64,000 nucleotides of DNA from a virus (lineage: Duplodnaviria > Heunggongvirae > Uroviricota > Caudoviricetes): the IMG/VR virus record IMGVR_UViG_3300033804_000036. One strand, written 5' to 3'. Positions 534 to 44,504 of the stretch are shown here, piece by piece. Each line of letters begins with the position of its first letter. Position 1 is the stretch's first letter. The notes under the pieces are model-generated. The model was given only the letters and a program-made list of their open reading frames with translations, ran no database searches and was not told where the DNA came from. A program made the translations under genes and the position numbers.

Positions 534-1055
534 ATGTCAACCGAACAAGAGCAACAGCCTAAGCCTCAAAACGAAAAGTTGGCACAGCCTATTGTGGTCG
601 ATGTGACTGACCACGACATCGTAGAAATGTTTGAACGCCAAAGCGGTTATCGCGCACTTGCAGATGAGAAGCTGAAGCTTTTGAAAGCCGAGGTTCCTGA
701 CGATATTACAAAGCTCGCCGAGGACACAAGCAAGGACAAGGCAACTCTGAAGGAGAACATTCAGAAAACTTCTCCGAAAGATGTCAAGGCAAAACTCACC
801 GCAATTTTGACGAATGAACAGCACATCCGAGATGCTCGCAAACTTGCCTTCAACAGTCTGCCCGAAGTCAAAGTCGCAAAGCTGGAAGCTCAAAGGATGT
901 CGAGAGCTTCACAAGTTTTGGCTCTACGATATGCAACTGCACTTTATCCTGATTGGGGTAAAGCGCACGTTATGGACTTGGCAAACCCGACTGACTTCAA
1001 GATTTTCTCTGAGGCTCATAAGGCTGAACTGAACAGGAAAACGAAGAGCAAATAG
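534..1055 (+). CDS. Hypothetical protein, 173 aa, charged and coiled-coil-like
   Basis: Long ORF. A purine-rich RBS (gaggg) sits upstream. The antisense ORFs are shorter. Confidence 0.5.
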   Translation: MSTEQEQQPKPQNEKLAQPIVVDVTDHDIVEMFERQSGYRALADEKLKLLKAEVPDDITKLAEDTSKDKATLKENIQKTSPKDVKAKLTAILTNEQHIRDARKLAFNSLPEVKVAKLEAQRMSRASQVLALRYATALYPDWGKAHVMDLANPTDFKIFSEAHKAELNRKTKSK

Positions 1056-1155
1056 GCTCAACTCGTTTTCCAATTCGAACCCCCGTTTTTGCCATGTTCC
1101 AATATTCTGAGAGGCTTTAGAATAGCGACATGGAGAAGCCTCAGAGGTGAGAAGA

Positions 1156-1359
1156 ATGTGGATTCTTGTTTGTGAATGCGGAGAGCATATGCACGATGAA
1201 AGAAAAGCCACAGTTGTTAAGATACTCTGGGCAACACATAACCAAACTAAACATGATGGCAAACTCACAGAACAAGATTATTGGTTACGACAGGAACATG
1301 GACAAAACGTAGAGGATTATCTTAACGCTGTAAAGCAAAACATCATCGTGGAAGCATAA
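1156..1359 (+). CDS. Small Cys/His-rich protein
   Basis: aggtga SD then ATG at 1156. The track starts at a GTG at 1147. Contains a CECGEHMH motif. Confidence 0.4.
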   Translation: MWILVCECGEHMHDERKATVVKILWATHNQTKHDGKLTEQDYWLRQEHGQNVEDYLNAVKQNIIVEA

Positions 1360-2169
1360 CCCATTTTGTTTGTGTCCACTATTCCCGATACCTCCAAGCG
1401 GTGTGGATGGATAACGCTAAAATCGGGAATGTGGGAAGGGAGCTAAACAGGTAGAAAACTTTTATCATTCAGCAGAAAATCCTTCGGCTCAAATCGGCAC
1501 TTGGCTTCCCCATGCGGACTTTCCAACTGACAAGAAACTCCTTTTCTCCCAACCTGTTGGAATTGAGACAGGCTACACGTTCTCAAGAGAATTTGTAGTC
1601 CTAGCCAAGACTGCCGAGAGCTAACGAAGGTTCTGCTGAATTGAAAGAATGTGTGTCGCCAGAAGAGATAAGGTCGCCTGTGAAGAACAGGTGCAGGTTC
1701 ACCCGACTGCTTAAAGACCTCTGCTTAAACTGACGAGGAAGCCGTCCTCAGCCACTATGTAGAATCCTGTTCTGTGCAACAGCATAGTGGTGCTGGTAAA
1801 TTCTGTCCGAGGAGTAAGCTCGATTGAGATGGCTGAAACTAGAGGCGGCGATGTTCAAGCGAAAAGTTTGAACCTCCAGACAAGTGTAACTTGTCGCAAG
1901 CACTATGCTCTTGCCGAGATGATGGCAGGATTTGAACCCTCTCAGCAAAAGCCCTAAGCAACAGTGCTCTAGTTAGAAACCGAATTTCCAGCGGTTGCAG
2001 GTATAGCGAAAAAGGGAAACTAGAGAGTCAATGACGCTGGCGGCGTAGGCACATAGGGTGAACGTGCCGAGGTGACCAAAATGTTCTGAGAACTTCTTTA
2101 AAAGGGCGGTAAGTCCGAGAGGACGGTCAATGCGACTGCTAAGAGCTAATCCGCCCTCAAAAGGGTGAG

Positions 2170-2700
2170 GTGATAACTTTGGCTAAATGCTCTTGCGGGG
2201 ATCCGAGACTGAAATTCTTGAACGCAACAACCGCCCGATGTCCACGAGGACACGTCATCGCCATCTCCAGAAACAAAGGCGAAATCACTTCCAAAAATCC
2301 AATAACTCCCTTTCCTTTTTCTCAGGGTGTAGTAATGGGGATAGGTTTTCAAGAGTCGATGCGACAGAGAACCAGAAACTTCTATCGAAGCAGAAGACAG
2401 AGGCAAGTGCAGGGCAAAGGTCACGATCCATGCCCGTTCTGCGGTCAGCCTAAAATGCGGTGGTTCGCAGTGTCCACTGAGATTTGGCGACAGTTCATGG
2501 AGGAATATGCAGATGCTAGAATGTATGTTTTCAGATGCGACAACCACAAGTGCCTAGCCAGAGAAACCACGATAATTCTTAAGACGCCGCCCTTCGAATA
2601 CACAGACGCTTACAACAGATTCGTAGACTACGTAGCACTTGCCCAAACAAAACAGCAACGAATACAGTCTCCGATAATCTTGGAACAAGAAATCCAATAA
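2170..2700 (+). CDS. Cys-rich zinc-ribbon protein, 176 aa
   Basis: gggtgagg SD then GTG start. Several CxxC / CxxxH pairs. Confidence 0.45.
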   Translation: MITLAKCSCGDPRLKFLNATTARCPRGHVIAISRNKGEITSKNPITPFPFSQGVVMGIGFQESMRQRTRNFYRSRRQRQVQGKGHDPCPFCGQPKMRWFAVSTEIWRQFMEEYADARMYVFRCDNHKCLARETTIILKTPPFEYTDAYNRFVDYVALAQTKQQRIQSPIILEQEIQ

Positions 2701-2722
2701 TTCTCCCTCCGTTTTTTCTCTG

Positions 2723-3073
2723 TTGATTGAAGTTAAAGAAAATATTACAGAAGAAGAAGTGGCACAGCTTCTAAAGGATATCAAAGGAAGAAACCAGCAG
2801 GTTCGCGTTCGCCTACGAACCCATTACTTCACAGCAAGCGAAGCTGACATAGATACTTACCCTGAACTCACTTGGGATGCCCTCATCATCACCAAAGACG
2901 CAGCGAGAGAAAAGCGCATGCTTATCGCCCTAGTGAACATTCAAGGCCATGGAAAAGTGTACGAAGTCAACAATGAACTTTACGAAGACGTCGTGTCAGA
3001 CAGAAAGCCAGTCTCAGCCATACGAGAAGGAACATTCATACTTGACTTTGACGACAGCCTAGCAGACCACTAA
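2723..3073 (+). CDS. Hypothetical protein, 116 aa
   Basis: ORF ending just before the next motif. Non-ATG (TTG) start, so the start is uncertain. Confidence 0.35.
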   Translation: MIEVKENITEEEVAQLLKDIKGRNQQVRVRLRTHYFTASEADIDTYPELTWDALIITKDAAREKRMLIALVNIQGHGKVYEVNNELYEDVVSDRKPVSAIREGTFILDFDDSLADH

Positions 3074-3098
3074 CCCTCTTTTTCTCTCGGGTGAGTAG
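3070..3098 (+). promoter_or_regulatory. Intergenic motif copy (T-tract + GGGTGA SD) upstream of the ligase gene
   Basis: taaCCCTCTTTTTCTCTCGGGTGAGTAGATG. Confidence 0.7.
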
Positions 3099-4106
3099 AT
3101 GCGAACAGCAGAGCAGTTGCTTAAAGCAGGATTGATGTTGTGTGACACGCCGACAGTCAAGAGTGCACAGAATCTTACAGTCCCTATCAGGAAATACGAG
3201 AGCAAATTTGATGGCACGAGAGGTAAAGGCGCGAATCTTGGAAACAACCAGATAGAGATCATCGGCAGGGACAGAGGCAACGGTCAGGGAACGTTGTATG
3301 GAACAAGAGGAAACCTTCCAGAACTGAACAAGGACATGCAGAGAGCACCTGCACAAACAGTTTTTGACATGGAAATAATCGGACGCAACGAAGTGGGCAT
3401 CGTAACTTTTTCCATCAGCCAGACACGATGTGCAAACCATAAAGCCGTTCCATCAATTGTAGAGCAGAATCCCATCACGGGAATGTGCTTTGACATTCTG
3501 ATGTTGAGAGGAAAAGAAGTTTGGCAGTTGCCTTATCTGGGACGGAAAGCCATCTTGAAAGAGGAACTCAGCACGGGAGGATATGAACACCTAGAATATT
3601 CTGAGCATTACGACGACGGTCGAGAGTTGTGGAAGAATGTTGAGCAGGGATACATGGAAGGCGTGATTGCAAAAGTGGCGGCAAGCCCGTACACTTTCAG
3701 CAGAGGACCTGAATGGTGGAAGCTGAAGTTTCAACAGGACATAATAGTCGACGTAGTCGGCTACACGGCTGGAAAAAACGCTCGGGAAGGACTTTTCGGA
3801 GCGCTGATCGTCACCAAAGACGGAAAACACATCGGAGAAGTCGGCCCAGGACACTTAGAAAGGTCAGAATCCGAGAAGCTGACCGCTTTTTTGAACGCTC
3901 AACCCAAAATTCCATGTCCATTCCTCATTGACAAGCCATATCAAGCCATCCGAACCACGCTTCAAGCAGACGTGACCTTCCACAGACTCTCAAAATACGG
4001 AATAATGCGGTTCCCGGTGCTGAACAGAACCATCTACCCTCAACAAGTGCAGTTGCAAGACTGTCCGAAGCCGACAACATCACCAATTTCCCCTTTTTCT
4101 GGGTGA
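3099..4106 (+). CDS. ATP-dependent DNA ligase-like nucleotidyltransferase, 335 aa
   Basis: Motif I KFDGTRG, motif III FDMEII, motif IV EGVIAK, motif V WWKLK. An OB-like C-terminal region follows. Confidence 0.72.
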   Translation: MRTAEQLLKAGLMLCDTPTVKSAQNLTVPIRKYESKFDGTRGKGANLGNNQIEIIGRDRGNGQGTLYGTRGNLPELNKDMQRAPAQTVFDMEIIGRNEVGIVTFSISQTRCANHKAVPSIVEQNPITGMCFDILMLRGKEVWQLPYLGRKAILKEELSTGGYEHLEYSEHYDDGRELWKNVEQGYMEGVIAKVAASPYTFSRGPEWWKLKFQQDIIVDVVGYTAGKNAREGLFGALIVTKDGKHIGEVGPGHLERSESEKLTAFLNAQPKIPCPFLIDKPYQAIRTTLQADVTFHRLSKYGIMRFPVLNRTIYPQQVQLQDCPKPTTSPISPFSG

Positions 4107-4113
4107 AAGTAGA

Positions 4114-4293
4114 ATGGAGTTAAAATTAACGAAATCCAAAGGCACTACAACGCTAGTCTTCTACGTCAGCGAACAGAGATACGCAGATGCCGAGAAGCTT
4201 GTAGAAAGCGCTGAACTTAAGGCTGTCTTCCAGAAATTCGGCTTTCCAATCGAAGCGGTAGTAAAATCCTCAGTCAGGGCACTACAACATTAG
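4114..4293 (+). CDS. Small hypothetical protein, 59 aa
   Basis: Motif gggtgaaagtagaATG. Below the ORF-track cutoff. In frame to TAG at 4291. Confidence 0.35.
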   Translation: MELKLTKSKGTTTLVFYVSEQRYADAEKLVESAELKAVFQKFGFPIEAVVKSSVRALQH

Positions 4294-4439
4294 AATGCAA
4301 GAGCTTCTTCCTCCATGTTAACCCCTTCTTTTTTCTCTATGGGTGAGCTTGCGAGGCTCGACTGTCATTGGCAGAAACCATGCCTTAAATGTGTCGTTTG
4401 CCCTGCTCAGTCAGCCCGCAGCCACTCGGGTGAATGTAG

Positions 4440-4805
4440 ATGACGTTTCATCTAGCGTTTAAAGTGACGGAAGTTAGAGAAGACGAACATAACCCTGACC
4501 ACGTCCAACTCTACGCAGTAGTCGAAGCCCCTCAAGAACCCAAACAACAGCAACAGCCTAAAGTAATACAAATCGGCATTCCAGAGAAAGACGACGTATC
4601 CAATTTCGGACAGAAACTCCAAACGTCGCTGACAGAAGCAGGGCTAATGCCACAGCAAAGAAAACGTCCCATAGCGGGAATCAGCCTGTACATCTCAGCG
4701 CACCAGTTCATCCAGCTTGGCAGACCTTCAGTCGGAGACCTCATCAGCATAGACGCGGAAACCCTGCCGAGAGGTTTTGACGCGCCCGCCAAGTCCGAGG
4801 AATAA
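4440..4805 (+). CDS. Hypothetical protein, 121 aa
   Basis: gggtgaatgtagATG motif start. Confidence 0.45.
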   Translation: MTFHLAFKVTEVREDEHNPDHVQLYAVVEAPQEPKQQQQPKVIQIGIPEKDDVSNFGQKLQTSLTEAGLMPQQRKRPIAGISLYISAHQFIQLGRPSVGDLISIDAETLPRGFDAPAKSEE

Positions 4806-4807
4806 CC

Positions 4808-5005
4808 ATGACCCAGAAGGTTGACGGCAAACATCCACAGAAGATTGAAGTCCCACCAGACGGCTGTGACGCATGGCCCCATTGCAACACCTGTCCATAC
4901 CCATGCACGGAAACACAGATCGCCGAGAAAGTCGGCAAAATCAGACAACAACTCATAGCAAATGCTGAAAGACGAAAGAACCCAAACTGGAAGAACGACC
5001 TATGA
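4808..5005 (+). CDS. Small Cys-rich protein, 65 aa
   Basis: ATG overlaps the upstream stop. Contains CDAWPHCNTCPYPC. Confidence 0.35.
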   Translation: MTQKVDGKHPQKIEVPPDGCDAWPHCNTCPYPCTETQIAEKVGKIRQQLIANAERRKNPNWKNDL

Positions 5006-5527
5006 AAGTTCACAGATACGTGATTTGCAATGTCAAACAAGAACACTGGAAAGACGTTGAAGAAGCGTTGATAACCCTAGTTCAAAAAGGAATCATAAAA
5101 ACTACAGATGTCCACACAATGGAAGAAGAGGAAAGAAAATGACTTGGTGTCGTAAGCAGCAGAGAGAAGTCAAAGAATCGGATGAGTGCCTGTTCTGCGA
5201 CGAGTACGAGCCGAACCAATGGGACAACTGGTGCAAACTCAAAAGGAAAAGAATCTAACTTCCGCACCCCCTATTTCTACACAGTTAGGGTAGACCTTTT
5301 CAGTGCAGAATACCCACTCGTGTCCATAGCGCCCATCAGGGTGAATAAATGACAGGCCCAGAATTTTTTCAGACACCGATGGGACGCGACTTCTACGACC
5401 ATACGATGCCAGCGATAGCCAAAGCTTTAACGCGGATAGCAACTGCTATGAAGCAAGACACAAACCTAGCACTTGTCAAATAGCAAATTCTAAATAATAC
5501 TTCCACCTTTTTCTAGGGTGAAGCCGA

Positions 5528-5923
5528 ATGTTGAAGTGGCTTAGGAAACTCCTGCGGTTCAGGAATCACGATAGTTTTCAAAAAACAGAAACTGAAAACC
5601 ATGGGGAAACGGAGAAACGTATTAGAGCCGAGGAAAACCCCAAAGCGATGACGAGCGACACTCCTCCCATTCCCCACTCTACAACATGGCCTAGAAACCC
5701 CACCTTCTCCGAAGTGATTGACCTTTCCCCTGAAAACCTAAGCAGACCTACGAGGCAAAGGCGATTGCCGAACCCTGAACTTCCTTCTAAGCAACTGCAC
5801 AGCCGACCTCTTTCTGAAATGAGTCTTGGCAAACGTGGAATGCACCGATCTAAAGCGTCAACGGCACACCAGAACAGACTGTGGAATCCTAAAGCGAAAC
5901 CTGAAGACCCTGAAGACGACTAA
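5528..5923 (+). CDS. Hypothetical basic, proline-rich protein, 131 aa
   Basis: ggtgaagccgaATG motif start. Confidence 0.4.
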   Translation: MLKWLRKLLRFRNHDSFQKTETENHGETEKRIRAEENPKAMTSDTPPIPHSTTWPRNPTFSEVIDLSPENLSRPTRQRRLPNPELPSKQLHSRPLSEMSLGKRGMHRSKASTAHQNRLWNPKAKPEDPEDD

Positions 5924-5962
5924 TCCCTTTTTTCTTTTTTTTCCGCTTTGGGTGAAGCCGAA

Positions 5963-6688
5963 ATGGTTTTACTGCAGATAGAAGACCTCAGCGTGGAAGT
6001 CAGCAAGAAAAAGCTGAACAGCAACATACTGTTTCCAGAGCCGAAGCCGTATCGGCCGTTGAAGCAGCTTGACGAAAAAGCAAAGGTCATCGACCCAGCC
6101 GACGTAGTTGAATTGCACCGCCAACGTACATACACTCTTCGGGCCGACGGTTCAGTGATTGGAACAACGGCGCAGGTGTCGTACAAGGATGAATGGGTTG
6201 ACAACGAAGGCAAAGTAGCCGACATAATCCTGTGGCTTCTCATGAAAGACGGCAAGCTTGTTCCATCGAAGCAGTACAGCGCCTCCAGGGTCATCACAGG
6301 AATTCTTCAGATCTCGAGGAAGATTGTGGAGAACTGGGTTCCTGAAAGCGTCTACGAAATCTACATCAGCCGCAGAAAATACAACGAAGCTGAATACGGA
6401 CGTATGCAGGCGCTTCTGTTCAAGAAGGCTGAAGAATGGTACGCCAACGACAGGGCTATGCTTGGACAATTCGTCTTCAGAGAGGGCGGCAGACCGTACG
6501 CCATGCTATTGTTCCCATACATCAGGAAGGAAGGCAACACCTGCAAGTTCTGTTTCGTCATGGCGTGCAGCAGAACAAAACAGGAATTCGAGAACCTGAT
6601 GGAGTTCTCAACTGCACTGAGACAGCCGACTGTGCTTCTGGCTGAGGAACCGAACAACGAGGAACTATTGAGAGCAATTGCTCAGTAA
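5963..6688 (+). CDS. Hypothetical protein, ~241 aa
   Basis: gggtgaagccgaaATG. The track ORF begins 15 nt earlier at a TTG inside the motif. Confidence 0.5.
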   Translation: MVLLQIEDLSVEVSKKKLNSNILFPEPKPYRPLKQLDEKAKVIDPADVVELHRQRTYTLRADGSVIGTTAQVSYKDEWVDNEGKVADIILWLLMKDGKLVPSKQYSASRVITGILQISRKIVENWVPESVYEIYISRRKYNEAEYGRMQALLFKKAEEWYANDRAMLGQFVFREGGRPYAMLLFPYIRKEGNTCKFCFVMACSRTKQEFENLMEFSTALRQPTVLLAEEPNNEELLRAIAQ

Positions 6689-6721
6689 ATCCCAAAGCAA
6701 AGGCAGTGGTGCGGAAGCCAA

Positions 6722-6955
6722 ATGACTGGGAGTCTTAGACACTGTGAAGATTGTGGAAAAGCTATAAGCGCGAATGCTTTTGCACATCGAAAACCAAAAG
6801 ACAAATTGGTTTTATTATGTCAAAAATGTAAGCTACATAAACGTACTGGAACTAATAATCCGAATTGGAAAGGCGATGCGGCTACGTACAGAGCAAAAAG
6901 ATATCGCATTACAAAGGCAAAGAATAGACATGTTAAGGGACTACATCATTTTTAA
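6722..6955 (+). CDS. Small HNH-like zinc-binding protein, 77 aa
   Basis: CEDCGK ... AHRKP ... LLCQKCKLHK resembles a degenerate HNH motif. Confidence 0.35.
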   Translation: MTGSLRHCEDCGKAISANAFAHRKPKDKLVLLCQKCKLHKRTGTNNPNWKGDAATYRAKRYRITKAKNRHVKGLHHF

Positions 6956-7012
6956 GCAATAGCTCAGTAGATTCCAAACAATTTCCCTTCTTTTTTCCTG
7001 ATAAAATTATGG

Positions 7013-7231
7013 GTGAAAGAGTTGGTCAAAGTTGGAAAGATTAGACTGTCCGAGGAAGAGGTTCGATTACTAAACATGACTCCTACCAAAACTTGTTGGT
7101 TATGCACCGACATCGCTTCGCGTGTACGTGAAGATGCACAGGGCTATTTTCTGCTTGAAACTGCACTAGACGACGACGGAAAAGCTGAGCATCTGAGACA
7201 GGTAATCGGAAGAGAACCCACAGTAACCTGA
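7013..7231 (+). CDS. Hypothetical protein, 72 aa
   Basis: The start is the GTG inside the GGGTGAA motif. It could instead be the ATG at 7077. Confidence 0.3.
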   Translation: MKELVKVGKIRLSEEEVRLLNMTPTKTCWLCTDIASRVREDAQGYFLLETALDDDGKAEHLRQVIGREPTVT

Positions 7232-7245
7232 GGAGAGGAATAAAG

Positions 7246-7491
7246 ATGAAATACAAAGTTATAGTGAAAATTACAACAGAGGCCAAGGACGCTCAAGAAG
7301 CTGAAAACAATGCGTGGGCTTATCTCTGTCAATGCGATAAAAGCGACGTAGAGTTTGAAGTTCAAGACCCTGAACATGACGAGCAAGGTCACAGAATAAG
7401 AAACCCTAATGCAACACCTGAAGACCAATGTTTTAAGTGTCCAGACAAGTACACTGCTAACTGTACTACGGAGAAATGTTTAGTCGAATAA
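7246..7491 (+). CDS. Small Cys-rich protein, 81 aa
   Basis: gaggagagg RBS. C-terminus CFKCPDKYTANCTTEKCLVE. A frameshifted copy of this tail lies at 20285-20357. Confidence 0.45.
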   Translation: MKYKVIVKITTEAKDAQEAENNAWAYLCQCDKSDVEFEVQDPEHDEQGHRIRNPNATPEDQCFKCPDKYTANCTTEKCLVE

Positions 7492-7516
7492 TCCTCTTTT
7501 TTTGTTGGGTGATAAA

Positions 7517-7750
7517 ATGGACTTTCGAGAGTTAGATGAGGACGGACTTACCATCTGTCCACAATGTAGAAAACACTATAGGCCAGTGTTAGGCGAACGG
7601 CCGAAAGGAGACAACCGACCGGTACAACAGATTTTTCCAAACGCTAAGAAATTCGAATTGGAACAGCTTATTACAGGTATATGCAGCGATGCTTGCTGGA
7701 ACAAGTATCTAGGAATAAGAGCAAGTGCACACACACTCAAACGGGAATAA
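7517..7750 (+). CDS. Zinc-ribbon protein
   Basis: gggtgataaaATG. Contains CPQCRKHY. Confidence 0.45.
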   Translation: MDFRELDEDGLTICPQCRKHYRPVLGERPKGDNRPVQQIFPNAKKFELEQLITGICSDACWNKYLGIRASAHTLKRE

Positions 7751-7777
7751 TTCCTCTCTTTTTTGTCGGGTGAAAGT

Positions 7778-7981
7778 ATGCCGTGGCATGAAACAGAAGA
7801 GATGCACAACGTCAAGACGTTGCTGATGACTATAAACCTGCAAGCTGTCAAAGGAGAAATTCCTATCGACGACTACAACATGTTCCTTGAAAGCCTCAAC
7901 GAAGACATCTCGCCAGAATATCGGATAGTGAAAAAACGCCGTCCAGTCTCATCGAGAACGGTTGTCACCCGGTATCCGTAA
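7778..7981 (+). CDS. Hypothetical protein
   Basis: gtcgggtgaaagtATG motif start. Confidence 0.4.
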   Translation: MPWHETEEMHNVKTLLMTINLQAVKGEIPIDDYNMFLESLNEDISPEYRIVKKRRPVSSRTVVTRYP

Positions 7982-8013
7982 CCTGCCGCCGCAAGCGCAC
8001 GAGGGACTAAGTA

Positions 8014-8280: not shown

Positions 8281-8322
8281 ATTCTTAAATCCTACTTTTT
8301 TCTATTTATGCCGGGTGACAAG

Positions 8323-8785: not shown

Positions 8786-8809
8786 CCTTTCTTTTTTTCT
8801 GGGTGAATA

Positions 8810-36872: not shown

Positions 36873-36921
36873 AAAAACACGCTCTCGTTACTCACGCATA
36901 ACATTAACAAGGGTGAAAAAT

Positions 36922-37113: not shown

Positions 37114-37149
37114 AAAGCCTTATAACCGTTTCTTTTTCTGTATATAGCT

Positions 37150-37629
37150 ATGAATTGGGGATATGTGGCAGGCTTCTTTGATGGAGAAGGTTGTTTAACT
37201 TTCTCATATGAAAGTAAGCAAGTAGCTCCAAGAATTGAAATATCAAACTGTAACTCGGATACATTAGAAGCACAAAGAACTTTTACAGGTAACTTAGGTC
37301 ACATAAACCCGTATAAGCCGCGACGTAGACATAGTGGCTTACTCCCGAAATACACAAAGAATACCCGACCGATTTGGCGATGGGACATTGCTCATCGCGA
37401 CGACGTACAAACTTTCCTTGAAAACATAAAATCCTTTCTTATCATTAAGAAAGATTTGGCTGAGCTAGCACTCGTAATAATCGCAAATAATGACTACTCC
37501 AAATGTTCACATAAACTTCACAGAGTTGACCAGAAGAAATTCGACGCAAATATTGGAAAGAGGAGAAGACCTGCAAGGAACTTGGTAAAGAGTATAAAGT
37601 GCATCCAATGGCGATTCAAAAATTCATGA
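37150..37629 (+). CDS. LAGLIDADG homing endonuclease, single motif
   Basis: MNWGYVAGFFDGEGCL. A tatatag TATA-like element lies upstream, where the GGGTGAA motif is absent. Confidence 0.65.
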   Translation: MNWGYVAGFFDGEGCLTFSYESKQVAPRIEISNCNSDTLEAQRTFTGNLGHINPYKPRRRHSGLLPKYTKNTRPIWRWDIAHRDDVQTFLENIKSFLIIKKDLAELALVIIANNDYSKCSHKLHRVDQKKFDANIGKRRRPARNLVKSIKCIQWRFKNS

Positions 37630-37704
37630 TTAGGTACAATATCCCGAGGCGCAAAGCTGCCAAATTTAAGCGGCAACTTCCTCTTTTTTCTGTTGGGTGA
37701 AATT

Positions 37705-38034
37705 ATGAACAGAATTCAAAGAAAAAGAACAAAAGGATGGAAGATGTCGCCCAACACAGTATATGTTGGGCGGCCTACTAAATGGGGAAATCCATGGACG
37801 ATAAAGGAATATGGACGCGAAGATGCTTTGAGACTATATGAATCTTGGTTACGTGAGGAAATCTTACTTGACCCTGACTTTCTTGAGCCGCTCAAAGGCA
37901 AAGACCTTGCCTGCTGGTGCCCGCTTGACAAACCATGCCACGCCGATGTTATCCTGAAAGTCTTAGGCGAAAAGCCTAACATTGGCTTTCCTGACTACGG
38001 TTCTCCAATCGAATCTCCAAATCTAGGAGGATAA
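37705..38034 (+). CDS. DUF4326-like protein
   Basis: gggtgaaattATG. GRPTKWGNPW ... CWCPLDKPCHADVI. Confidence 0.45.
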   Translation: MNRIQRKRTKGWKMSPNTVYVGRPTKWGNPWTIKEYGREDALRLYESWLREEILLDPDFLEPLKGKDLACWCPLDKPCHADVILKVLGEKPNIGFPDYGSPIESPNLGG

Positions 38035-38062
38035 CCCCTTTTTTTCTAGGGTGAGGTGAAAA

Positions 38063-38248
38063 ATGAGGCTAGGATTCAACATAGGAGCTTTCCTTGTGGG
38101 TTTCGGCACACCAGCGTTCGTTTACGGTGTTGTCGAATGGTGCTCACAGAAGCCACGTGTATTCTACCTAGTTGAAATGGTTGTGGGACTTTCTGTAACT
38201 GCAGCAGGATTTCTCTTGATATATGCTTCGGAGAAAAGAAAGAAATGA
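38063..38248 (+). CDS. Small membrane protein
   Basis: Two TM helices. Confidence 0.45.
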   Translation: MRLGFNIGAFLVGFGTPAFVYGVVEWCSQKPRVFYLVEMVVGLSVTAAGFLLIYASEKRKK

Positions 38249-39042
38249 CAAAGTTCACGTTTGACAAGTTCAGCTTTGACATCGACAAGTCTTTCCTGAA
38301 GCTTTCACTGCTGCTGGTTGTCAGCGGATCCCATGCTTACGGATGGCCTACTGAAGCAAGCGACTTGGATGTACGCCATGTTTTCGCCCCTGAAATCAGA
38401 CAGGCACTCAGCATATTCTACAAATGCAAGACAGAACAGCGTAAAGAAAAACATGAGGAAGGACTGATTGAATTCACAACCTATCCGATTCAGCCTTTCC
38501 TCGGGCTGCTCGCTAAAGGCAACGGAAACGTGCTGGACAACCTTTTCGAAGCCACAGGACCGCCGCAGCCAGTGCTTTACGTTGACAAACCGAAAGTTGT
38601 GGAATTGCAGAAAATAGTTCTTGATCATCTGCACAAAGGGTTTCTGATGCACTGCACCGGGTACGACACTCATCTGAAGAAAGACATGGAAAACGAGACG
38701 AGGCTAGCGCGGTACGGCAGAGAGAAGCTGCTGCTTAACAGGTACAAGATTCTGCTGGAAGGACTGATCCTCGCCAACTACGGCGAAGTAGTCTACAATC
38801 TCAGGAAACAACACGAATACATAAAGACGCTCTGGTGCATTGAACTACTAGAAGATTACCAAGCAGGCAGGCCGTTTCTCGCGTTTCTCGGCAGAAGAGC
38901 AAACCAAGAAGCAACACTTGAAGTTGAGCAACTGCATAGTCGACTGGTAAAGTTGACGGAAACAATAAAGTGGCCTACCGCAGGGCAAAGCACCATCGAC
39001 GTTCCCTTGGACAGATGGTTAATCAATCACTATCTCCCCTAA
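38245..39042 (+). CDS. Pol-beta-superfamily nucleotidyltransferase
   Basis: VSGSHAYGWPTEASDLDV (GS ... D.D). Substrate unknown. Confidence 0.55.
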   Translation: MTKFTFDKFSFDIDKSFLKLSLLLVVSGSHAYGWPTEASDLDVRHVFAPEIRQALSIFYKCKTEQRKEKHEEGLIEFTTYPIQPFLGLLAKGNGNVLDNLFEATGPPQPVLYVDKPKVVELQKIVLDHLHKGFLMHCTGYDTHLKKDMENETRLARYGREKLLLNRYKILLEGLILANYGEVVYNLRKQHEYIKTLWCIELLEDYQAGRPFLAFLGRRANQEATLEVEQLHSRLVKLTETIKWPTAGQSTIDVPLDRWLINHYLP

Positions 39043-39062
39043 TTTTTTCTAAGGTGAACAAT

Positions 39063-39284
39063 ATGGAAAACCCGTTTGTCTGCGAAAAATTCTCGGATTT
39101 TTGGCGGCTGATTGCAATAGAATTCAGCCCTATTTGGGTAAACGTTCCTTTTGATGAAGATCCTGACCACGAAACCTGTCCCTATTGCGGTTTGGTTGGG
39201 TCTTGCATGTGTGACATGATTGCCGAAGAAGAACTTGACCCTGAAGGGTTAGGACTAGAAGAAGACTATGGATACGTCTATTGA
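39063..39284 (+). CDS. Cys-rich small protein
   Basis: aaggtgaacaatATG. CPYCGLVGSCMCD. Confidence 0.4.
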   Translation: MENPFVCEKFSDFWRLIAIEFSPIWVNVPFDEDPDHETCPYCGLVGSCMCDMIAEEELDPEGLGLEEDYGYVY

Positions 39285-39443
39285 ACATGAATTATGTGGA
39301 TACTCAAACTGTTTTCGGCCATTCTACAAGATGTGCGGTTTCATGCCATGCTGCAAACTTCATTATGAACATCCTAAGAAATGGGGTGAAGACGGGCAAA
39401 CATTTACAGGTTCAGTCTTTGTAAAGGCGTAAGGGTGAATAAC

Positions 39444-39698
39444 ATGGATCAGAAAGAGTTGCAGAGAAAACTGGCAAACAGCACTGACATAGAAGGCATG
39501 GTCACCTGCGGAGAATGTATCTGGTCATGCTGGCACAGATGGACATGGTACTGCGTCAACCCGCTGATCATGCATGAAATCGAATACGCAACGATAGAAA
39601 AGAACCGGCTTTGCGGCCATTTTAAAAAGGCAGAGTTTGAAGTACAGTACCGATTTGACGTGAATCTCGAACAACAGGACGAGGATGATTTCAGATGA
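39444..39698 (+). CDS. Cys-rich hypothetical protein
   Basis: agggtgaataacATG. Confidence 0.4.
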   Translation: MDQKELQRKLANSTDIEGMVTCGECIWSCWHRWTWYCVNPLIMHEIEYATIEKNRLCGHFKKAEFEVQYRFDVNLEQQDEDDFR

Positions 39699-39924
39699 GT
39701 GAACCACCATGCGTGAAATGTAAACAAACTATGCCTGAAGAATGGCTGAAACAAAACTGCCCATGCGCGGAAAGAAAGGCTTGGGAAGCTAATCAGGAGA
39801 AAGAAAATGAAGGAAGAAAGAGAAGAAAACATAGACCCTGAAGAAGATGATCCCACAACTGATCTGTTGGCGGAGGAAGAAAATGCCGAACTGCAAAGGC
39901 GCGAATAGTTTCAGGGGTGACAAC

Positions 39925-41301
39925 ATGAACAACCTTTTGCTTCAAACAGATTCGTACAAGCAGTCGCATTGGAAACAGTATCCACCAGGAACAACCAACA
40001 TCTACAGCTACTTCGAAAGCAGAGGAGGAGAATATCCTGAAGTGGTTTTCTTCGGCCTACAATATATTCTGAAACGATACTTGGAAGGACAAGTGGTTAC
40101 AGAAGCCAAAATCGAAGAAGCCGAAAAAATCTGCGCCCTCCATTTCGGCAGTGAAGACCTGTTCAACAAAGACGGCTGGAACTATATTCTCGATGTCCAT
40201 GGTGGCAAACTTCCGCTTTCAATCAAAGCGGTCCCTGAAGGAACAGTTGTGCCAACCCATAACGTGCTGGTAACCGTGGAAAACACAGATCCTAACGTGC
40301 CTTTCCTAACCAATTTTGTAGAGACTCTTCTAGTGCAAACATGGTATCCAAGCACAGTAGCCACATTGTCACGACACATCAAACAACTGATAAACAGGTA
40401 TCTGGAAATCACTGGTGACCCGTCCTTAATCGACTTCAAACTACACGACTTCGGCTTCAGAGGAGTATCTTCAACAGAAAGTGCTGGTATAGGCGGCTGC
40501 GCTCATCTAGTCAACTTCAAAGGCACAGACACAATGGCGGCGCTGATGATCGCCAGAGAATACTACCATTGTGAAATGGCAGGCTTCAGCATTCCAGCAG
40601 CAGAACACAGCACCATGACCGCATGGGGAAAAGACCATGAAGTAGACGCTTTCCGCAACATGCTACGCAGCTACCCGAAAGGCACAGTCGCCGTCGTCTC
40701 CGACCAGTACGACATTTACAAAGCATGCGCAGACCTCTGGGGAACCCTGCTTAAACAAGAAGTTCTGGAAAGAGACGGAGTCCTAGTTATCCGGCCAGAC
40801 AGCGGCAACCCGCCTGAAGTTGTCTTGAAAGTAATCAGCATCCTCGGCGAACATTTCGGCTACTACAAAAACGACAAAGGCTACAAAGTCCTGAACAACC
40901 ACGTTCGAGTGATACAGGGAGACGGCGTTGACGAGCAGATGATAGAAAAAGTTTTGAAAACCTTGGAACTGAGCAGATGGAGCACGGACAACATTTCATT
41001 CGGCATGGGCGGCGGCCTCCTGCAGAAACTTCACAGAGACACGCAGAAATTCGCGTTCAAATGTTCAAACGCCGTCGTCAACGGAGAACAACGCCTAGTC
41101 TTCAAAACTCCTATAACAGACCCGGGTAAAAACAGCAAGGCTGGACGACTTAAACTGGTCAAAAGCAACGGCACATACATAACCGTTCCCGAATGGGCTG
41201 ACAGGTACGGGCCAGACCGGCTTGTGCAAGTTTTCCTCAACGGCTACGTCACTACAAAATATTCTATGGACACAATCAGGGAACGGGCCAAAATAAGGTG
41301 A
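39925..41301 (+). CDS. nadV: Nicotinamide phosphoribosyltransferase (NAMPT/NadV-type)
   Basis: aggggtgacaacATG. N-terminal LLQTDSYKQSHW, GG ... LSIKAVPEGTVV, ~460 aa. Confidence 0.8.
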   Translation: MNNLLLQTDSYKQSHWKQYPPGTTNIYSYFESRGGEYPEVVFFGLQYILKRYLEGQVVTEAKIEEAEKICALHFGSEDLFNKDGWNYILDVHGGKLPLSIKAVPEGTVVPTHNVLVTVENTDPNVPFLTNFVETLLVQTWYPSTVATLSRHIKQLINRYLEITGDPSLIDFKLHDFGFRGVSSTESAGIGGCAHLVNFKGTDTMAALMIAREYYHCEMAGFSIPAAEHSTMTAWGKDHEVDAFRNMLRSYPKGTVAVVSDQYDIYKACADLWGTLLKQEVLERDGVLVIRPDSGNPPEVVLKVISILGEHFGYYKNDKGYKVLNNHVRVIQGDGVDEQMIEKVLKTLELSRWSTDNISFGMGGGLLQKLHRDTQKFAFKCSNAVVNGEQRLVFKTPITDPGKNSKAGRLKLVKSNGTYITVPEWADRYGPDRLVQVFLNGYVTTKYSMDTIRERAKIR

Positions 41302-41513
41302 TGCAAACGGATAAGTTAAGATGGTTCGGCTGCATACTTCTCGGCATTGGACTTTTCATCTACGCCGTAGTTACTATGTTTCTTCTCGTCGGCGGATCAA
41401 GCTCGTTTACCCCTACTGAATACATACGAAGACTGGCAAACATCACTCTTTTCGCAGCAGTATTCACAGGGCTAGGCGTCGTAGCCGTGATTTTCGGAGA
41501 TGAAAAGAAATGA
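41298..41513 (+). CDS. Small membrane protein
   Basis: Two TM helices. ATGA overlap with the upstream gene. Confidence 0.45.
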   Translation: MMQTDKLRWFGCILLGIGLFIYAVVTMFLLVGGSSSFTPTEYIRRLANITLFAAVFTGLGVVAVIFGDEKK

Positions 41514-41767
41514 GAACTTGGAAAAAAACTTGTCCTTCCTGCGGCAAAGAATTTGATGCAAAACGAAAAATCCAAACATACTGTTCGAGACAATGTTCAG
41601 GAAAAGCCACGGGAAAAGCCACGGGAAAAACGGCTCATAAACATCATGTCTGCGAAAACTGCGGCAAAAAATATCTATGCGATGACCCTGCCACCTGCAA
41701 GCTTCCCGTAAGATACGGCACCTGCAGCCTCAATTGTGCTATTGAATGGAACAAGAAAAACCAATAA
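41510..41767 (+). CDS. Cys-rich zinc-binding protein
   Basis: CPSCGK, CSRQC, CENCGK, CSLNC. Confidence 0.45.
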   Translation: MRTWKKTCPSCGKEFDAKRKIQTYCSRQCSGKATGKATGKTAHKHHVCENCGKKYLCDDPATCKLPVRYGTCSLNCAIEWNKKNQ

Positions 41768-41796
41768 TTTCCCTCTTTTTCTGTTGGGTGAAAAAC

Positions 41797-42027
41797 ATGG
41801 TAACAAAAAAATTCTGCGATGTTGAAGGCTGCGATGAAGAAGCGTTTGAGTCTGTCGACGTCTGCTACGGCTGGCTAGAGAGCCAACAAAGGGAAGGAGA
41901 ACCAGAAAAGAAATTCGAACGTTTCGAGCAACCAGACGTGGGAAAACGAGACCTATGTTTCAAACATTACAAACTCTGGTGTGCAGCAACCTACACGGTA
42001 ATTCAAGGTGAAAAGAAAAATGAGTAA
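41797..42027 (+). CDS. Hypothetical Cys-containing protein
   Basis: gttgggtgaaaaacATG. Confidence 0.45.
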   Translation: MVTKKFCDVEGCDEEAFESVDVCYGWLESQQREGEPEKKFERFEQPDVGKRDLCFKHYKLWCAATYTVIQGEKKNE

Positions 42028-42739
42028 GAAAATGTTTGGGTTCATAACTGAAACGTGGAATCCGATTGTGCATGAATGTCCGCATAAATGCAAGTATTGC
42101 TGGGCTAGAATGTTGAAGAGGGGCAAGCTGAAGCTGACGCCTAGATACGCGGACGGCAAGGACAAGCTGATCGAAAAGGAACTGGGTAAACGCTGGAAGA
42201 AAGGCGACTTCGTCTTTGTCTGCGACATGTGCGATCTCTTCGCGCATAACATGCCTGACACGTGGATTCGCCGAGTCCTAGAGACAATCATGAACTCTCC
42301 AGACGCAACATTCCTGTTACTGACAAAGAATCCAGAGCGATTCTGGTTTTTCCGCAGTATCATACCGAGCAACTGCATACTGGCAACAACGATAGAATCC
42401 AACAGGCATGACATGAACATCAGTTCCGCCCCGGCCCCGCACCTCAGATTCTACTCGATCCTCACCGAAAACTACCCGAGAAAAGCCGTTGTAGTCGAAC
42501 CTATCATGGACTTTGACGAAGGCATATTCATCAGTTGGTTCAGTCAACTACGCGGAAAACTCGAGTTTGTAGTGGTCGGCTACGACAACTACAACGCGCA
42601 TCTCCCCGAACCCACATTGGCTAAAACAGAACAGTTCATAGAAGACTTAAAAACCATGGGCTTCACAGTCTACACTAAGACGATACGCAAAAGCTGGAAA
42701 GAACTTGAACAAGAAACTGCAGGGCAAAATAAGTCCTAA
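42020..42739 (+). CDS. DUF5131 (phage Gp37/Gp68) family protein with a Cys triad
   Basis: aaggtgaaaagaaaaATG. TWNPIVHECPHKCKYCWA. Confidence 0.6.
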   Translation: MSKKMFGFITETWNPIVHECPHKCKYCWARMLKRGKLKLTPRYADGKDKLIEKELGKRWKKGDFVFVCDMCDLFAHNMPDTWIRRVLETIMNSPDATFLLLTKNPERFWFFRSIIPSNCILATTIESNRHDMNISSAPAPHLRFYSILTENYPRKAVVVEPIMDFDEGIFISWFSQLRGKLEFVVVGYDNYNAHLPEPTLAKTEQFIEDLKTMGFTVYTKTIRKSWKELEQETAGQNKS

Positions 42740-43093
42740 AGCAGCATGCATAGAATGCGGAAAAGAAATCATACAGGTAGCAGGGATCTGGCGACATACA
42801 GACCTAAACACGGACGGCCACGCAGCAAAACCCATAAACACCAAACCACTCCGAAAACATTCCGCCGAAACATAATAGTTACACTATAATGGGTGTAACA
42901 ACTACCCGCTTTTTTGGGTGATTCAAACGACTGAAAAATCTTTGCGTGATTTCAAAACTGTCGACGAACTCACTGCGGAAATCAAACGCATGAACGAGAC
43001 AAACCCTGCCTGCCATCTTGACGGAACATGGCGAAGACGAATGAAAAAACTTAATCAGAAACGTGAACGTTTAGAAAACGAGAAGGTGAAATA

Positions 43094-43510
43094 GTGGAAG
43101 AATTAATCATTGAAGTCCGCGCTGCAGACGTTCTAGAAAAAGTGAAACAGCACAGAAAACGCTACCAGAAATCGTACGCAGCATTGTTGAGAGCATTCGA
43201 CAGGAGAGCCATAGAATACCAGAAGAAATACGAGGAATTCCGCCGAACCACCACCGCCAACGAGCAAGGAAAAGAGCCTGAAGCACCGCCGAAACCAGAA
43301 AACCGCACTAAAGACTATGATTTCTACATACAAATGTTAACGTCACACACTGCAACAACCATCAAAATTTCAGAAGCCCTGTTCAAACGGCTTTTCTACG
43401 ACAAATGGGACTGGACATACCAACACCATCACGCACTAATGTTCTACGCGAAAGCCGGAGGCCCAGGAAGCGCAGACCTAGCAACAATGGCAAGCGCATA
43501 CGAACGATGA
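43094..43510 (+). CDS. Hypothetical protein, 138 aa
   Basis: aaggtgaaataGTG start. Confidence 0.4.
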   Translation: MEELIIEVRAADVLEKVKQHRKRYQKSYAALLRAFDRRAIEYQKKYEEFRRTTTANEQGKEPEAPPKPENRTKDYDFYIQMLTSHTATTIKISEALFKRLFYDKWDWTYQHHHALMFYAKAGGPGSADLATMASAYER

Positions 43511-43560
43511 TTTCGTGTGTACGATTCCTTTTTATACTTCCCTTTTTTTGGGTGAAGAAT

Positions 43561-43866
43561 ATGGATGAAAACAAACATGAACATGACAGATTCCTTTACT
43601 CAAAAGATGGCAAACTCCATTTCGGCTGTATAAATCCGTTTTGCGGTCATGGCGACCCTGCTCTGCCTAATCATTGGGAAATACCAATGGAAACAAAGTC
43701 AATAAGCATAATTTCTGCAAAACACGACAAAGAACATAGACTTTTAAGCTTTGAAATCAGATTCAAGGTAGATGTTGGAAGATTCAAGAAAGATGATGTT
43801 ATCCAGCTACCGTGTACCGACAATTTAGAATGTTGTAAAATAACATTTGGACAACTTTTCACCTAA
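43561..43866 (+). CDS. Hypothetical protein, 101 aa
   Basis: tgggtgaagaatATG. Confidence 0.45.
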   Translation: MDENKHEHDRFLYSKDGKLHFGCINPFCGHGDPALPNHWEIPMETKSISIISAKHDKEHRLLSFEIRFKVDVGRFKKDDVIQLPCTDNLECCKITFGQLFT

Positions 43867-43898
43867 CAAACTCTTCCTTTTTTCTGCTGGGTGAACGT

Positions 43899-44069
43899 AT
43901 GGTCTCAGAAGGAAAAGCAAGACTGTTCAAACGCAAAGACGGCAAATACCTCATATACATACCAGTTGACTTCGCAGAAGACAGCATGTTCCCCTTCAAA
44001 GGCTCCGACTCTGTAGCGTTAAAAGCCGTCTTCAACAAAGACGAAATAATCCTCAGAAAATGGAAGTAG
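43899..44069 (+). CDS. AbrB/SpoVT-like small DNA-binding protein (tentative)
   Basis: ctgggtgaacgtATG. ARLFKRKDGKYLIYIPVDFAED. Confidence 0.35.
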   Translation: MVSEGKARLFKRKDGKYLIYIPVDFAEDSMFPFKGSDSVALKAVFNKDEIILRKWK

Positions 44070-44111
44070 AAACATAACAGCCAAACATCAACCTCCCCTT
44101 TTTTCTTTCGG

Positions 44112-44438
44112 GTGAAAAACATGAACATTCGTAGGAAGTGGAGACTAAGACTTCGCAGAGGCATGAGGATAGCCATGATGAAATATGGAGCAACATTAAT
44201 TGAATGCCCAAACTGCCACCTACAGGTTCCTCATTACCGCGACGGAGTAACAACATGCCTTGCCTGCGGCGCAACAATTGAAGGTGACTTAAACGCAAGC
44301 GCTGAATACACAGCTAACAACATAACATCAACTCCAGAAGGAGCAACAGCAAAAATCAACCTCCCATCAATCAGACCAAACGAAACTCTCAAAGTAAACG
44401 TAACGTTCCGACTGAAAGAGAAACCAGACGGAAAATAA
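44112..44438 (+). CDS. Zinc-ribbon protein
   Basis: cgggtgaaaaacATG. CPNCHL ... CLACG. Confidence 0.45.
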   Translation: MKNMNIRRKWRLRLRRGMRIAMMKYGATLIECPNCHLQVPHYRDGVTTCLACGATIEGDLNASAEYTANNITSTPEGATAKINLPSIRPNETLKVNVTFRLKEKPDGK

Positions 44439-44504
44439 CCCTTCTTTTTTCTTTCGGGTGAAAAACTTTTAAGTAGAAAACTCCCTAATCATCTTCGGAG
44501 AGCC

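Follow-up and report, generated by a model that had tools for sequence, protein, structure and literature searches.

The stretch of 64,000 nt of IMG/VR virus record IMGVR_UViG_3300033804_000036 that was analysed, here called the window, begins with a long array of small genes that lie almost entirely on the plus strand between positions 534 and 44470. We refer to this array as the left arm. A minus-strand block of tRNA genes and a right arm of glycan, membrane and surface genes follow it, and the three are interpreted below as parts of an archaeal mobile element that we lean towards regarding as a virus. The window was joined to 15.7 kb of right flank from two Logan contigs of SRR10854783, which gives a composite of 79,664 nt (79.7 kb below) out of a contig of 90.4 kb.

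Gene content of the left arm

Open reading frames (ORFs) were selected with a codon-usage weighting for which the long ORFs of the window itself served as training set. The selection yields 99 ORFs in 534-44470, of which 93 are on the plus strand (median 97 aa) and six on the minus strand. Plus-strand coding density is 88%, four-base overlaps join 13 neighbouring pairs, and the AT skew remains at +0.13 to +0.31 over 1-44 kb and collapses at 45 kb. Five of the minus-strand ORFs encode only 31-64 aa; the sixth, of 111 aa, stands directly after the core gene g61, as a minus-strand ORF also does after the g61 homolog in relatives. The first-pass annotation had described about 90 co-oriented, short and overlapping plus-strand genes interrupted by this one minus-strand ORF, and the gene set obtained here agrees with that description. 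The main genes are listed below, with identities to homologs in other sequences, which are named by L numbers.

534..44470, plus strand: unidirectional array (left arm), 93 ORFs, median 97 aa
3099..4106, plus strand: ATP-dependent DNA ligase (Pfam 1.4e-16; homolog in L003)
5948..6688, plus strand: core protein g15 (55% identity in L003, 40% in L007)
8810..10483, plus strand: AAA+ ATPase with a CDC48/PAN-like ATPase domain (Pfam)
11714..12883, plus strand: core protein g27 (52% identity in L003, 31% in L007)
12942-13682 and 37150-37629, plus strand: LAGLIDADG homing endonucleases (Pfam)
13679..14268, plus strand: conserved pair of g29 (132 aa) and g30 (DUF2997 by Pfam), 66% identity in L003
14809..15759, plus strand: HtrA-type serine protease, Trypsin_2 and PDZ domains (Pfam)
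21431..22288, plus strand: SPFH/Band 7 membrane-scaffold protein (Pfam)
23700..24644, plus strand: core protein g56 (65% identity in L007 and L010)
24876..25637, plus strand: PCNA sliding clamp of archaeal type (Pfam, PDB)
26836..27459, plus strand: core protein g61 (49-50% identity in L003, L005 and L007)
27478..27813, minus strand: sole substantial minus-strand ORF of the array, 111 aa
37693..38034, plus strand: DUF4326 protein (Pfam)
39847..41301, plus strand: NAMPT (Pfam; NCBIfam 3e-186; 81% identity over a 134-aa fragment in L012)
42008..42739, plus strand: DUF5131 protein, Gp37/Gp68 family (Pfam; 75% identity in L012)

Approximately three quarters of the array genes match nothing known. 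When the products were searched by hidden Markov models, Pfam recovered 10 of the 11 functions that had been named from the sequence alone (PCNA, AAA, both ligases, LAGLIDADG, HtrA, SPFH, DUF4326, NAMPT and DUF5131); the eleventh, an NfeD protein beside SPFH, was not borne out, the small membrane ORF at 21223-21444 having no Pfam match. Pfam also adds an S-adenosylmethionine methyltransferase, DUF2997, ribbon-helix-helix and winged-helix regulators, a ThiF/E1-like enzyme and RlaP, and among 70 unannotated array ORFs PHROGs left 69 without a match and assigned one as a homing endonuclease. The 'dozens' of CxxC mini-proteins reported earlier were an overcount, since six ORFs carry at least two strict CxxC motifs and 19 pass a loose rule of two Cys/His knuckles per ORF.

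Among PDB entries, the clamp matches Thermococcales PCNAs at E values of about 1e-41 and human PCNA at about 1e-22. The AAA domain of 8810-10483 is closest to archaeal CDC48 (Joint Genome Institute [JGI] name, SpoVK/Ycf46/Vps4 family), follows a family-specific N-terminal region of 280 aa, and belongs to the only P-loop NTPase (Walker-A protein) found in 79.7 kb. Together with HtrA and SPFH, the AAA+ ATPase suggests functions in the handling of proteins and membranes. PCNA, the DNA ligase, DUF5131 and DUF4326 group as accessories of DNA replication and repair, along with the primase-polymerase-like candidate g110 described below, and NAMPT, whose assignment is certain, stands for NAD salvage. 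The element sequence (79.7 kb) showed no DNA polymerase. The phage pathway for reconstitution of nicotinamide adenine dinucleotide (NAD) consists of NAMPT and an NMN adenylyltransferase; no NMNAT or Nudix partner for NAMPT was recognised among the array products.

Two arm-specific upstream signals

The spacers between left-arm genes carry a recurrent element, which can be described as a single feature.

2314..44461, plus strand: intercistronic cassette in 45 copies, consisting of a stop codon, a C-rich stretch, T5-8, 0-6 nt, GGGTGA, 4-8 nt and a start codon

Of the 45 copies, 43 have exactly GGGTGA as their hexamer, and the strict pattern occurs 41 times against 0.005 in shuffles, with zero copies on the minus strand and zero to the right of 44.5 kb. 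Nearly every left-arm gene either overlaps its neighbour or has a cassette in front. The same cassette is found on the plus strand of L003, L007, L010, L012, L013 and L014, the last with 26 copies in 15 kb, several of them preceded by the palindrome TGAGCANNTGCTCA. The GGGTGA hexamer can pair with the 3' end of 16S rRNA, and its spacing from the start codon is that of a Shine-Dalgarno site. Because of this anti-Shine-Dalgarno match and the spacing of 4-8 nt, the cassette is more likely a ribosome-binding cassette than a promoter.

Within the left arm, the spacers contain TATA-like boxes only near 2097, 22348, 27835, 36692 and 43529; the one at 27835-27842 is inside the 44-nt spacer common to the minus-strand ORF 27478-27813 and the next plus-strand gene. 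The right-arm genes have no GGGTGA cassette, and in many of them GGAGAACC(AAC)ATG is preceded, at a distance of 12-32 nt, by a TATA-like box (CTTTTAAA or TTTATAA). The motif GGAGAACC was observed 16 times against 2.2 expected, 12 of the 16 being just upstream of right-arm genes and in gene orientation, and it is also present in the right arms of L010 and L012.

The left arm would accordingly be expressed as a few long polycistronic transcripts, read by the host RNA polymerase and using GGGTGA as their uniform Shine-Dalgarno site, and the right arm as many individually promoted genes. The two signals would then mark two expression classes, one early or replicative and the other late and concerned with the particle or the surface.

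Two side observations concern the cassette. At 34243-34304 there is a perfect-looking 30-nt tandem duplication of it (AACAATCTCCTAACCTTTTTTTCCTGGGTG), which places two GGGTGA hexamers before ORF 34296-34928. In L014:393-14552 the palindrome TGAGCANNTGCTCA and then a T-run stand ahead of many cassettes, an arrangement that looks like an intrinsic-terminator hairpin or an operator before each ribosome-binding site.

Extent of the element and its right arm

The AAA gene and the gene for a 512-aa protein, 5 kb past the window's right end, are on the same 90,405-bp JGI contig by exact-protein matches. The G+C content of the element is 46%, and the tetranucleotide correlation is 0.91 between the arms compared with 0.93-0.94 between the halves of one arm; there is no composition shift inside the element of the kind that the first pass had proposed to look for at the boundaries. 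Because of the shared contig, this correlation and the joint occurrence of left- and right-arm genes in the relatives L007, L010 and L012, we read the left arm, the tRNA block and the right arm as one element of ~90 kb. By Pfam, 79.7 kb contain no ribosomal, tRNA-synthetase, polymerase or other housekeeping gene and no integrase, and neither terminal or inverted terminal repeats nor long direct repeats are present within the sequence covered.

The module had been said to end at 44470. This position is merely where the minus-strand tRNA block starts, plus-strand genes resume beyond the block, and the real strand switch is at ~51.6 kb.

49934..51611, plus strand: continuation of the plus arm, with ORFs 49934-50134, 50308-50862, 50795-51232 (g110) and 51273-51611
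50795..51232, plus strand: g110, candidate small primase-polymerase-like enzyme (65% identity in relatives from Hainich groundwater, described below)
51668..64000 and on to at least 79.7 kb, no strand assigned: right arm, with glycan, membrane and surface genes

The g110 family comprises 437 cluster representatives at E values up to 1e-3 and corresponds to no Pfam family. Membership in the archaeo-eukaryotic primase (AEP) superfamily was judged by motif I DxD, motif II sGxGxH, a third acidic motif and an RNA recognition motif-like catalytic fold, and the outcome is only suggestive; g110 is a candidate for a new minimal primase-polymerase. The earlier statement that no capsid, terminase, polymerase or primase is recognisable holds for the first three; for the fourth, g110 is a candidate located just past the array interval. 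One g110 homolog (P0142) is split by an intein with a LAGLIDADG domain.

Within the window, the right arm encodes a GT2 glycosyltransferase (family 2), small membrane proteins, a PseD/Maf-like transferase, WbqC, a NeuC-like protein and NeuB. The right third and the flank also encode several small beta-rich or membrane proteins and two Ig-repeat proteins with Thr/Pro stalks and C-terminal membrane anchors. The 512-aa protein of the right flank is beta-helix-like, has no homolog among 5.8 billion proteins and is a fibre candidate. PHROGs gave only weak matches for the right-arm and flank proteins, to families without known function.

tRNA block and domain of the host

44769..49587, minus strand: tRNA block with 20 tRNA genes, three HNH-type ORFs and ORF 45259-45828
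44832-45224, 48099-48470 and 48850-49263, within the minus-strand block: paralogous HNH-type ORFs among the tRNA genes

Genes for tRNA were called by Rfam and ARAGORN. The window has approximately 21, of which 20 are in the minus-strand block and 10 are interrupted by introns (16-201 nt) placed at the canonical intron position or close to it. In the one intron of the 10 that was checked for it (tRNA 45994-46105), the exon-intron junctions fold into the archaeal bulge-helix-bulge splice motif, with two 3-nt bulges separated by a 4-bp helix. The anticodon labels of ARAGORN are unreliable for intron-containing tRNAs, and its 'Pyl (cta)' at 47043-47320 is probably a Gln (CUG) tRNA with a canonical 37/38 intron.

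The tRNA/HNH block at 44.5-49.9 kb corresponds to L012:4194-8887 with its internal order kept and its orientation opposite, so that in L012 the block is on the array's own strand, and it is absent from L007 and L010. No inverted repeats that could account for the inversion were found flanking the block. By this comparison the block is an accessory, invertible insert. A partial tRNA 3' half is located at ~44700-44745.

Because of the tRNA introns, one with a bulge-helix-bulge, the archaeal-type PCNA, the CDC48-like AAA domain and the TATA-like boxes on right-arm genes, we assign the element, by its sequence features, to an archaeon.

Distribution of relatives

Relatives are rare and are found on 16-45-kb contigs from groundwater and other metagenomes, with a colinear core kept on both sides of the tRNA block. 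For the AAA protein there are five full-length relatives with 53-76% identity and one more with 37%, which UniRef labels 'viral metagenome'. The full-length AAA relatives and all detected g110 relatives are only on short contigs (1-90 kb). This, together with the lack of housekeeping genes in 79.7 kb, is in accord with the first-pass view of a virus, provirus or plasmid module outside the core chromosome; that view is supported, provirus being the least likely of the three.

The 45.8-kb JGI contig L003 holds an all-plus colinear core of ligase, g15, AAA, g27, g29, DUF2997, PCNA, g61 and SPFH. Two contigs from Hainich well H43 (37,043 and 37,121 nt) are replicate assemblies of one relative. Hainich relatives are commoner in the 0.1-um filter fraction, with a coverage of 9-15, than at 0.2 um, where the coverage is 2. 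In the two 37-kb contigs the left-arm genes are followed directly by homologs of 50308-50862, g110 (65%) and the minus-strand GT2 gene, and then by the right-arm genes g114, g117, g118 and that of a 124-aa protein; no tRNA gene or cellular gene occurs in the ~28 kb covered. The paper on the Hainich groundwater virome describes well H43 as anoxic with abundant Nanoarchaeota and contains no description of this element. A closer relative, L012 (57-85% identity), has NAMPT, DUF5131, 15 tRNAs (eight with introns), g110 and GT2.

A search for g110 in 185,579 GTDB species genomes returned no relative, and one distant relative was found in IMG/VR. Single-protein IMG/VR scans with g27 and PCNA and alignment-based scans with g27 and g15 returned nothing, and neither did a megablast of window positions 8000-32000 (24 kb) against phage records. 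No described family with this gene set was found in the literature, and a literature search on the sample accessions returned nothing. Large mobile elements with an arm of small, co-directional genes for replication and takeover are a known kind, to which this one belongs; neither its lineage nor most of its genes nor its two upstream signals have a description in the literature and databases searched.

RNA-repair genes and a possible ubiquitin-like set

22379..22612, plus strand: 77-aa protein ending in TPGVGGG (73% conserved in a Hainich relative; no family match)
29384..30835, plus strand: Ro60/TROVE-like RNA-binding protein (PDB 2nvo (Rsr) 1e-4; human RO60 8e-4; NCBIfam Rsr 2.4e-5)
33515..34255, plus strand: ThiF/E1-like adenylyltransferase (Pfam and NCBIfam; firm)
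34937..35671, plus strand: RNA ligase, PF09414 (Pfam 4e-13)
35708..36133, plus strand: small protein with an exact JAMM motif, H-x-H-x7-S-x2-D (read by eye; Pfam Prok-JAB E=0.28)
36796..36872, plus strand: lone tRNA-like gene in the array (Rfam 59.7 bits)
38245..39042, plus strand: RlaP nucleotidyltransferase, RNA-ligase-associated Pol-beta family (Pfam 4.5e-12; family role from PMC7824862)

The joint presence of RNA ligase, RlaP and TROVE has been interpreted in jumbo phages as an RNA-repair system against host RNases, in which the TROVE protein acts with a tRNA-like partner (PMC7824862). All three occur in the left arm, TROVE by weak matches; the product of 29384-30835 matches Ro60 and Rsr weakly, and a DxSxS (metal-ion-dependent adhesion site, MIDAS) motif can be read in its C-terminal half. 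By analogy with the jumbo phages, we infer that the RNA ligase, RlaP and the Ro60-like protein would function as a linked RNA-repair system (PMC7824862). The tRNA-like gene at 36796-36872 lies downstream of the RNA ligase gene and upstream of that for RlaP, at 6 kb from the Ro60-like gene, and has an unusual AUA anticodon, a C1:A72 mismatch and an encoded CCA. Rather than decoding, its product could act as the tRNA-like partner in a Ro60-type system.

The 77-aa protein, the E1-like enzyme (33515-34255) and the JAMM protein (35708-36133) would together make up a ubiquitin-like set. The TPGVGGG end of the first resembles those of ThiS, MoaD or SAMP-type ubiquitin-like proteins.

Nature of the element

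We judge it somewhat more probable than the opposite that the interval 534-44470 is the left arm of a ~90-kb uncultivated archaeal mobile element, which is most likely a virus of virulent type from a family not yet described. In such a virus the left arm would serve replication, repair and host takeover. With PCNA and a ligase and no polymerase found, host polymerases would be recruited by the element's own clamp, and the RNA-repair, tRNA and NAMPT genes would counter host defences that cut tRNAs or deplete NAD. A virus is favoured over a plasmid by the tRNA block mixed with HNH genes, by RNA ligase (Rnl) with RlaP and TROVE, and by NAMPT and DUF5131. The two motif-defined gene classes, the beta-helix-like fibre candidate, the anchored glycoprotein-like proteins, the 'viral metagenome' and IMG/VR relatives, the enrichment of the Hainich relatives in the 0.1-um fraction and the absence of plasmid functions argue in the same direction. 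A fuller picture is offered more tentatively, with rather less than even confidence. The element may be the largest known member of an undescribed archaeal virus family (37 to 90 kb or more) whose particle and packaging genes are unrelated to those of known viruses. It would have two regulons, a polycistronic early arm marked by 'oligo-T + GGGTGA' and a late arm marked by 'TATA + GGAGAACC', and would bring its own set of tRNAs with introns, its RNA-repair genes, NAD salvage and the full pathway for nonulosonic-acid glycosylation.

Several observations weigh against a virus. The search of 79.7 kb, and of ~28 kb of the 37-kb relative, turned up no major capsid protein, portal, terminase or second P-loop ATPase, and because of this nothing positively identifies a virion; the hallmark search covers 79.7 of 90.4 kb, ~10.7 kb being outside the sequence covered. 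The first pass had proposed to look for capsid, terminase and portal genes beyond the window, and the Caudoviricetes hallmarks (HK97-fold capsid, portal and large terminase) have no Pfam or PHROG match in the window, the 15.7-kb right flank or the relatives examined. Varidnaviria are marked by an A32/FtsK-type packaging ATPase and a jelly-roll capsid protein; no second P-loop ATPase was found in 79.7 kb, and the right arm has several small beta-rich proteins. The load of glycan-synthesis and surface genes is also compatible with a plasmid-like element acting to remodel the surface of its host, and a ParB-like gene is carried by the distant relative L014. The early/late meaning of the two motifs is putative, and the T-run of the cassette resembles an archaeal terminator signal, which sits badly with long polycistronic transcripts. 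Finally, the affinities of AAA and PCNA resolve no archaeal host lineage.

These points bear most directly on a non-viral archaeal extrachromosomal element (a large plasmid, a mini-chromosome or something Borg-like), which we regard as a serious though unlikely alternative. Its left arm would provide maintenance and anti-defence, and its right arm would remodel the host surface by nonulosonic-acid glycosylation and anchored proteins. Such an element would need no capsid or packaging gene, none of which was detected, and would account for the richness of the right arm in glycan and surface genes; Borgs too have one strand per arm, and the ParB-like gene of L014 would find a place. The genes that usually equip plasmids are missing, however. 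Pfam found no Rep/Orc1-Cdc6 initiator, ParA/ParB or VirB4/TraG-type ATPase in the window or flanks, the AAA protein being the sole P-loop NTPase, no other partition gene was seen there, and no conjugation gene or integrase occurs anywhere in the sequences examined. Seven core proteins, searched by tblastn, have no match in the 72,556 plasmids of PLSDB, the pervasive tandem repeats of Borgs are absent (seven rows in 64 kb, mostly short), and tRNA/homing-endonuclease arrays, an RNA-repair kit and two arm-specific motifs are typical of virulent viruses.

That the interval is an integrated provirus or genomic island in an archaeal chromosome, with the tRNA block as integration site or boundary, appears very improbable. 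Genes for tRNA are common integration targets, a partial tRNA 3' half is present at ~44700-44745, and the uniform composition is what adaptation to a host chromosome would leave; yet 79.7 kb contain no integrase, cellular housekeeping gene or long direct repeats, and relatives without the tRNA block still keep the genes from either side of it together. The replicate Hainich assemblies (37,043 and 37,121 nt, no cellular genes in the 28 kb covered) and the absence of g110 from GTDB species genomes also speak against integration. We give the least credence, close to none, to a fragment of a eukaryotic giant-virus or bacteriophage genome. PCNA and glycan pathways occur in giant viruses. NAMPT, DUF5131, tRNA arrays and the Rnl, RlaP and TROVE trio are well known in large bacteriophages (PMC7824862). 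Both origins are at odds with the tRNA introns with bulge-helix-bulge, the archaeal-type PCNA, the archaeal TATA-like boxes and the Shine-Dalgarno-led, overlapping small genes, and in addition to the empty megablast of 8000-32000, the seven concatenated core proteins had no tblastn match in 50,697 phage and archaeal-virus records.

Comparison with known systems

The closest parallels in layout are large virulent bacteriophages such as T4, T5 and the jumbo phages, which like this element have long runs of small co-oriented genes, mostly of no known function, and tRNA clusters mixed with HNH and LAGLIDADG homing endonucleases. They also share RNA ligase, RlaP and TROVE (PMC7824862), NAMPT, DNA ligase and a sliding clamp. 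The element differs from them in its archaeal signals, in having PCNA instead of a beta or gp45 clamp, and in the lack of a detected HK97 capsid, portal or terminase.

Among archaeal viruses, HGTV-1 and HVTV-1 are large haloarchaeal tailed viruses of 70-140 kb with their own tRNA sets, PCNA and other replication accessories, and viruses of this type have clear tailed-virus structural genes and high G+C. The present element, in contrast, has 46% G+C, intron-containing tRNAs and no tailed-virus hallmark that we could find. Bicaudaviridae, STSV-type spindle-shaped viruses and pleomorphic archaeal viruses are large, non-tailed and without a packaging ATPase. The element resembles them in having no P-loop packaging enzyme, in its small membrane proteins and glycosyltransferases, and in its anchored glycoprotein-like proteins with Thr/Pro-rich stalks; it differs in that no sequence similarity to them or capsid protein of their kind was detected, and at 90 kb or more it exceeds their size.

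Borgs and mini-Borgs of Methanoperedens are extrachromosomal elements in which each arm is almost one-stranded, surface and glycosylation genes are numerous, and most genes have no known function. Borgs have ~33% G+C and sizes of 0.6-1.1 Mb, and they are linear with long inverted terminal repeats and pervasive perfect tandem repeats. Unlike them, the element is ~90 kb long, has no inverted terminal repeat in the 79.7 kb covered, and has no established link to Methanoperedens. Its identity as a Borg was considered and rejected on the 46% G+C and on the few tandem repeats (seven rows per 64 kb by Tandem Repeats Finder, of which only a 60-nt repeat in one gene is sizeable).

Giant and pox viruses have early and late promoter motif classes, for example the AAAATTGA early motif of Mimivirus. 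The element is similar in having a short invariant motif before about half of one gene class and another signal before the other class. It is dissimilar in that its left-arm motif lies at Shine-Dalgarno distance and no element-encoded RNA polymerase was found.

Implications

If the viral reading is true, there exists a family of large archaeal viruses that virus detection based on hallmark genes does not see, as reflected in only one distant relative in IMG/VR and none in GenBank phage records. The counter-defence tools of jumbo phages (tRNA arrays, RNA ligase with RlaP and Ro60, and NAMPT) would then also be part of the archaeal virosphere, and the tRNA genes of the element would depend on the host splicing endonuclease. 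The family and its signals would be new even if the element were a plasmid. With a terminator-like T-run before 45 ribosome-binding sites, the two arm-specific signals offer a handle on translation and termination in archaeal operons.

Further observations on individual genes

The best named relative of the ligase at 3099-4106 is the LigD-type ligase domain of non-homologous end joining (NCBIfam TIGR02779 1.7e-34, below its cut-off). The core protein g15 has no Pfam, PHROG or PDB match. It was considered as a Ku protein and dropped, because the Pfam Ku match (E=0.059) is confined to the window copy, with zero of two homologs, and its profile found nothing in PDB; a single-sequence structure model was unusable, with a predicted local distance difference test score of 41. 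An end-joining trio of Ku, LigD and AEP is accordingly an idea rather than a claim, given that the ligase is LigD-like, Ku is unsupported and AEP for g110 is only suggestive. The core protein g27 matches nothing in Pfam or PDB. The AAA+ ATPase, the DUF2997 protein and its 132-aa partner occur together in all relatives that have the AAA+ ATPase (L003 and L014), which suggests a three-gene functional unit.

At the left edge, two non-coding stretches, 1-533 (533 nt) and 1360-2169 (810 nt), precede the first GGGTGA cassette, and the first TATA-like box, at 2097, stands at the end of the second stretch. They have no Rfam match and could be an origin, a regulatory region or an RNA of a new type.

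54231..55007, minus strand: conserved anchored protein of 258 aa (24-85% identity in four relatives; no family match)
55648..57996, plus strand: 782-aa repeat protein with ~25 copies of a 20-22-aa unit

The 258-aa protein is the most widely conserved of the right arm and has a C-terminal membrane anchor; its His/Cys motifs, GMGHG ... WACHT, have the spacing of a caspase/gingipain-type catalytic dyad. In the 782-aa protein, units with a consensus of roughly ETLxFxDxxxxSKAxQKTLT follow a Ser/Thr/Gly-rich N-terminal domain. Its gene, within which the Logan assembly is interrupted, adjoins that of the PseD/Maf-like transferase, and the protein may form a fibre or be a target of glycosylation. A near-complete nonulosonic-acid pathway of pseudaminic or legionaminic type extends over 58118-64000 of the window and L006:5743-21539, with genes for a NeuC-like epimerase, NeuB, a CMP-sugar synthetase, a DegT aminotransferase, an acetyltransferase, an oxidoreductase and WbqC, and alongside them two PseD/Maf-like (MptE-like) transferases and a B12-radical-SAM enzyme. 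The DegT protein has only bacterial matches in GTDB, at 43% or less, and names no archaeal host. In the IMG/VR relative, L056:4187-6163 encodes a sugar epimerase/dehydratase with an insertion of ~370 aa; by tblastn this insertion weakly resembles (24-27% identity) phage genes with the annotation methylase or NAMPT, and it is possibly an intein.

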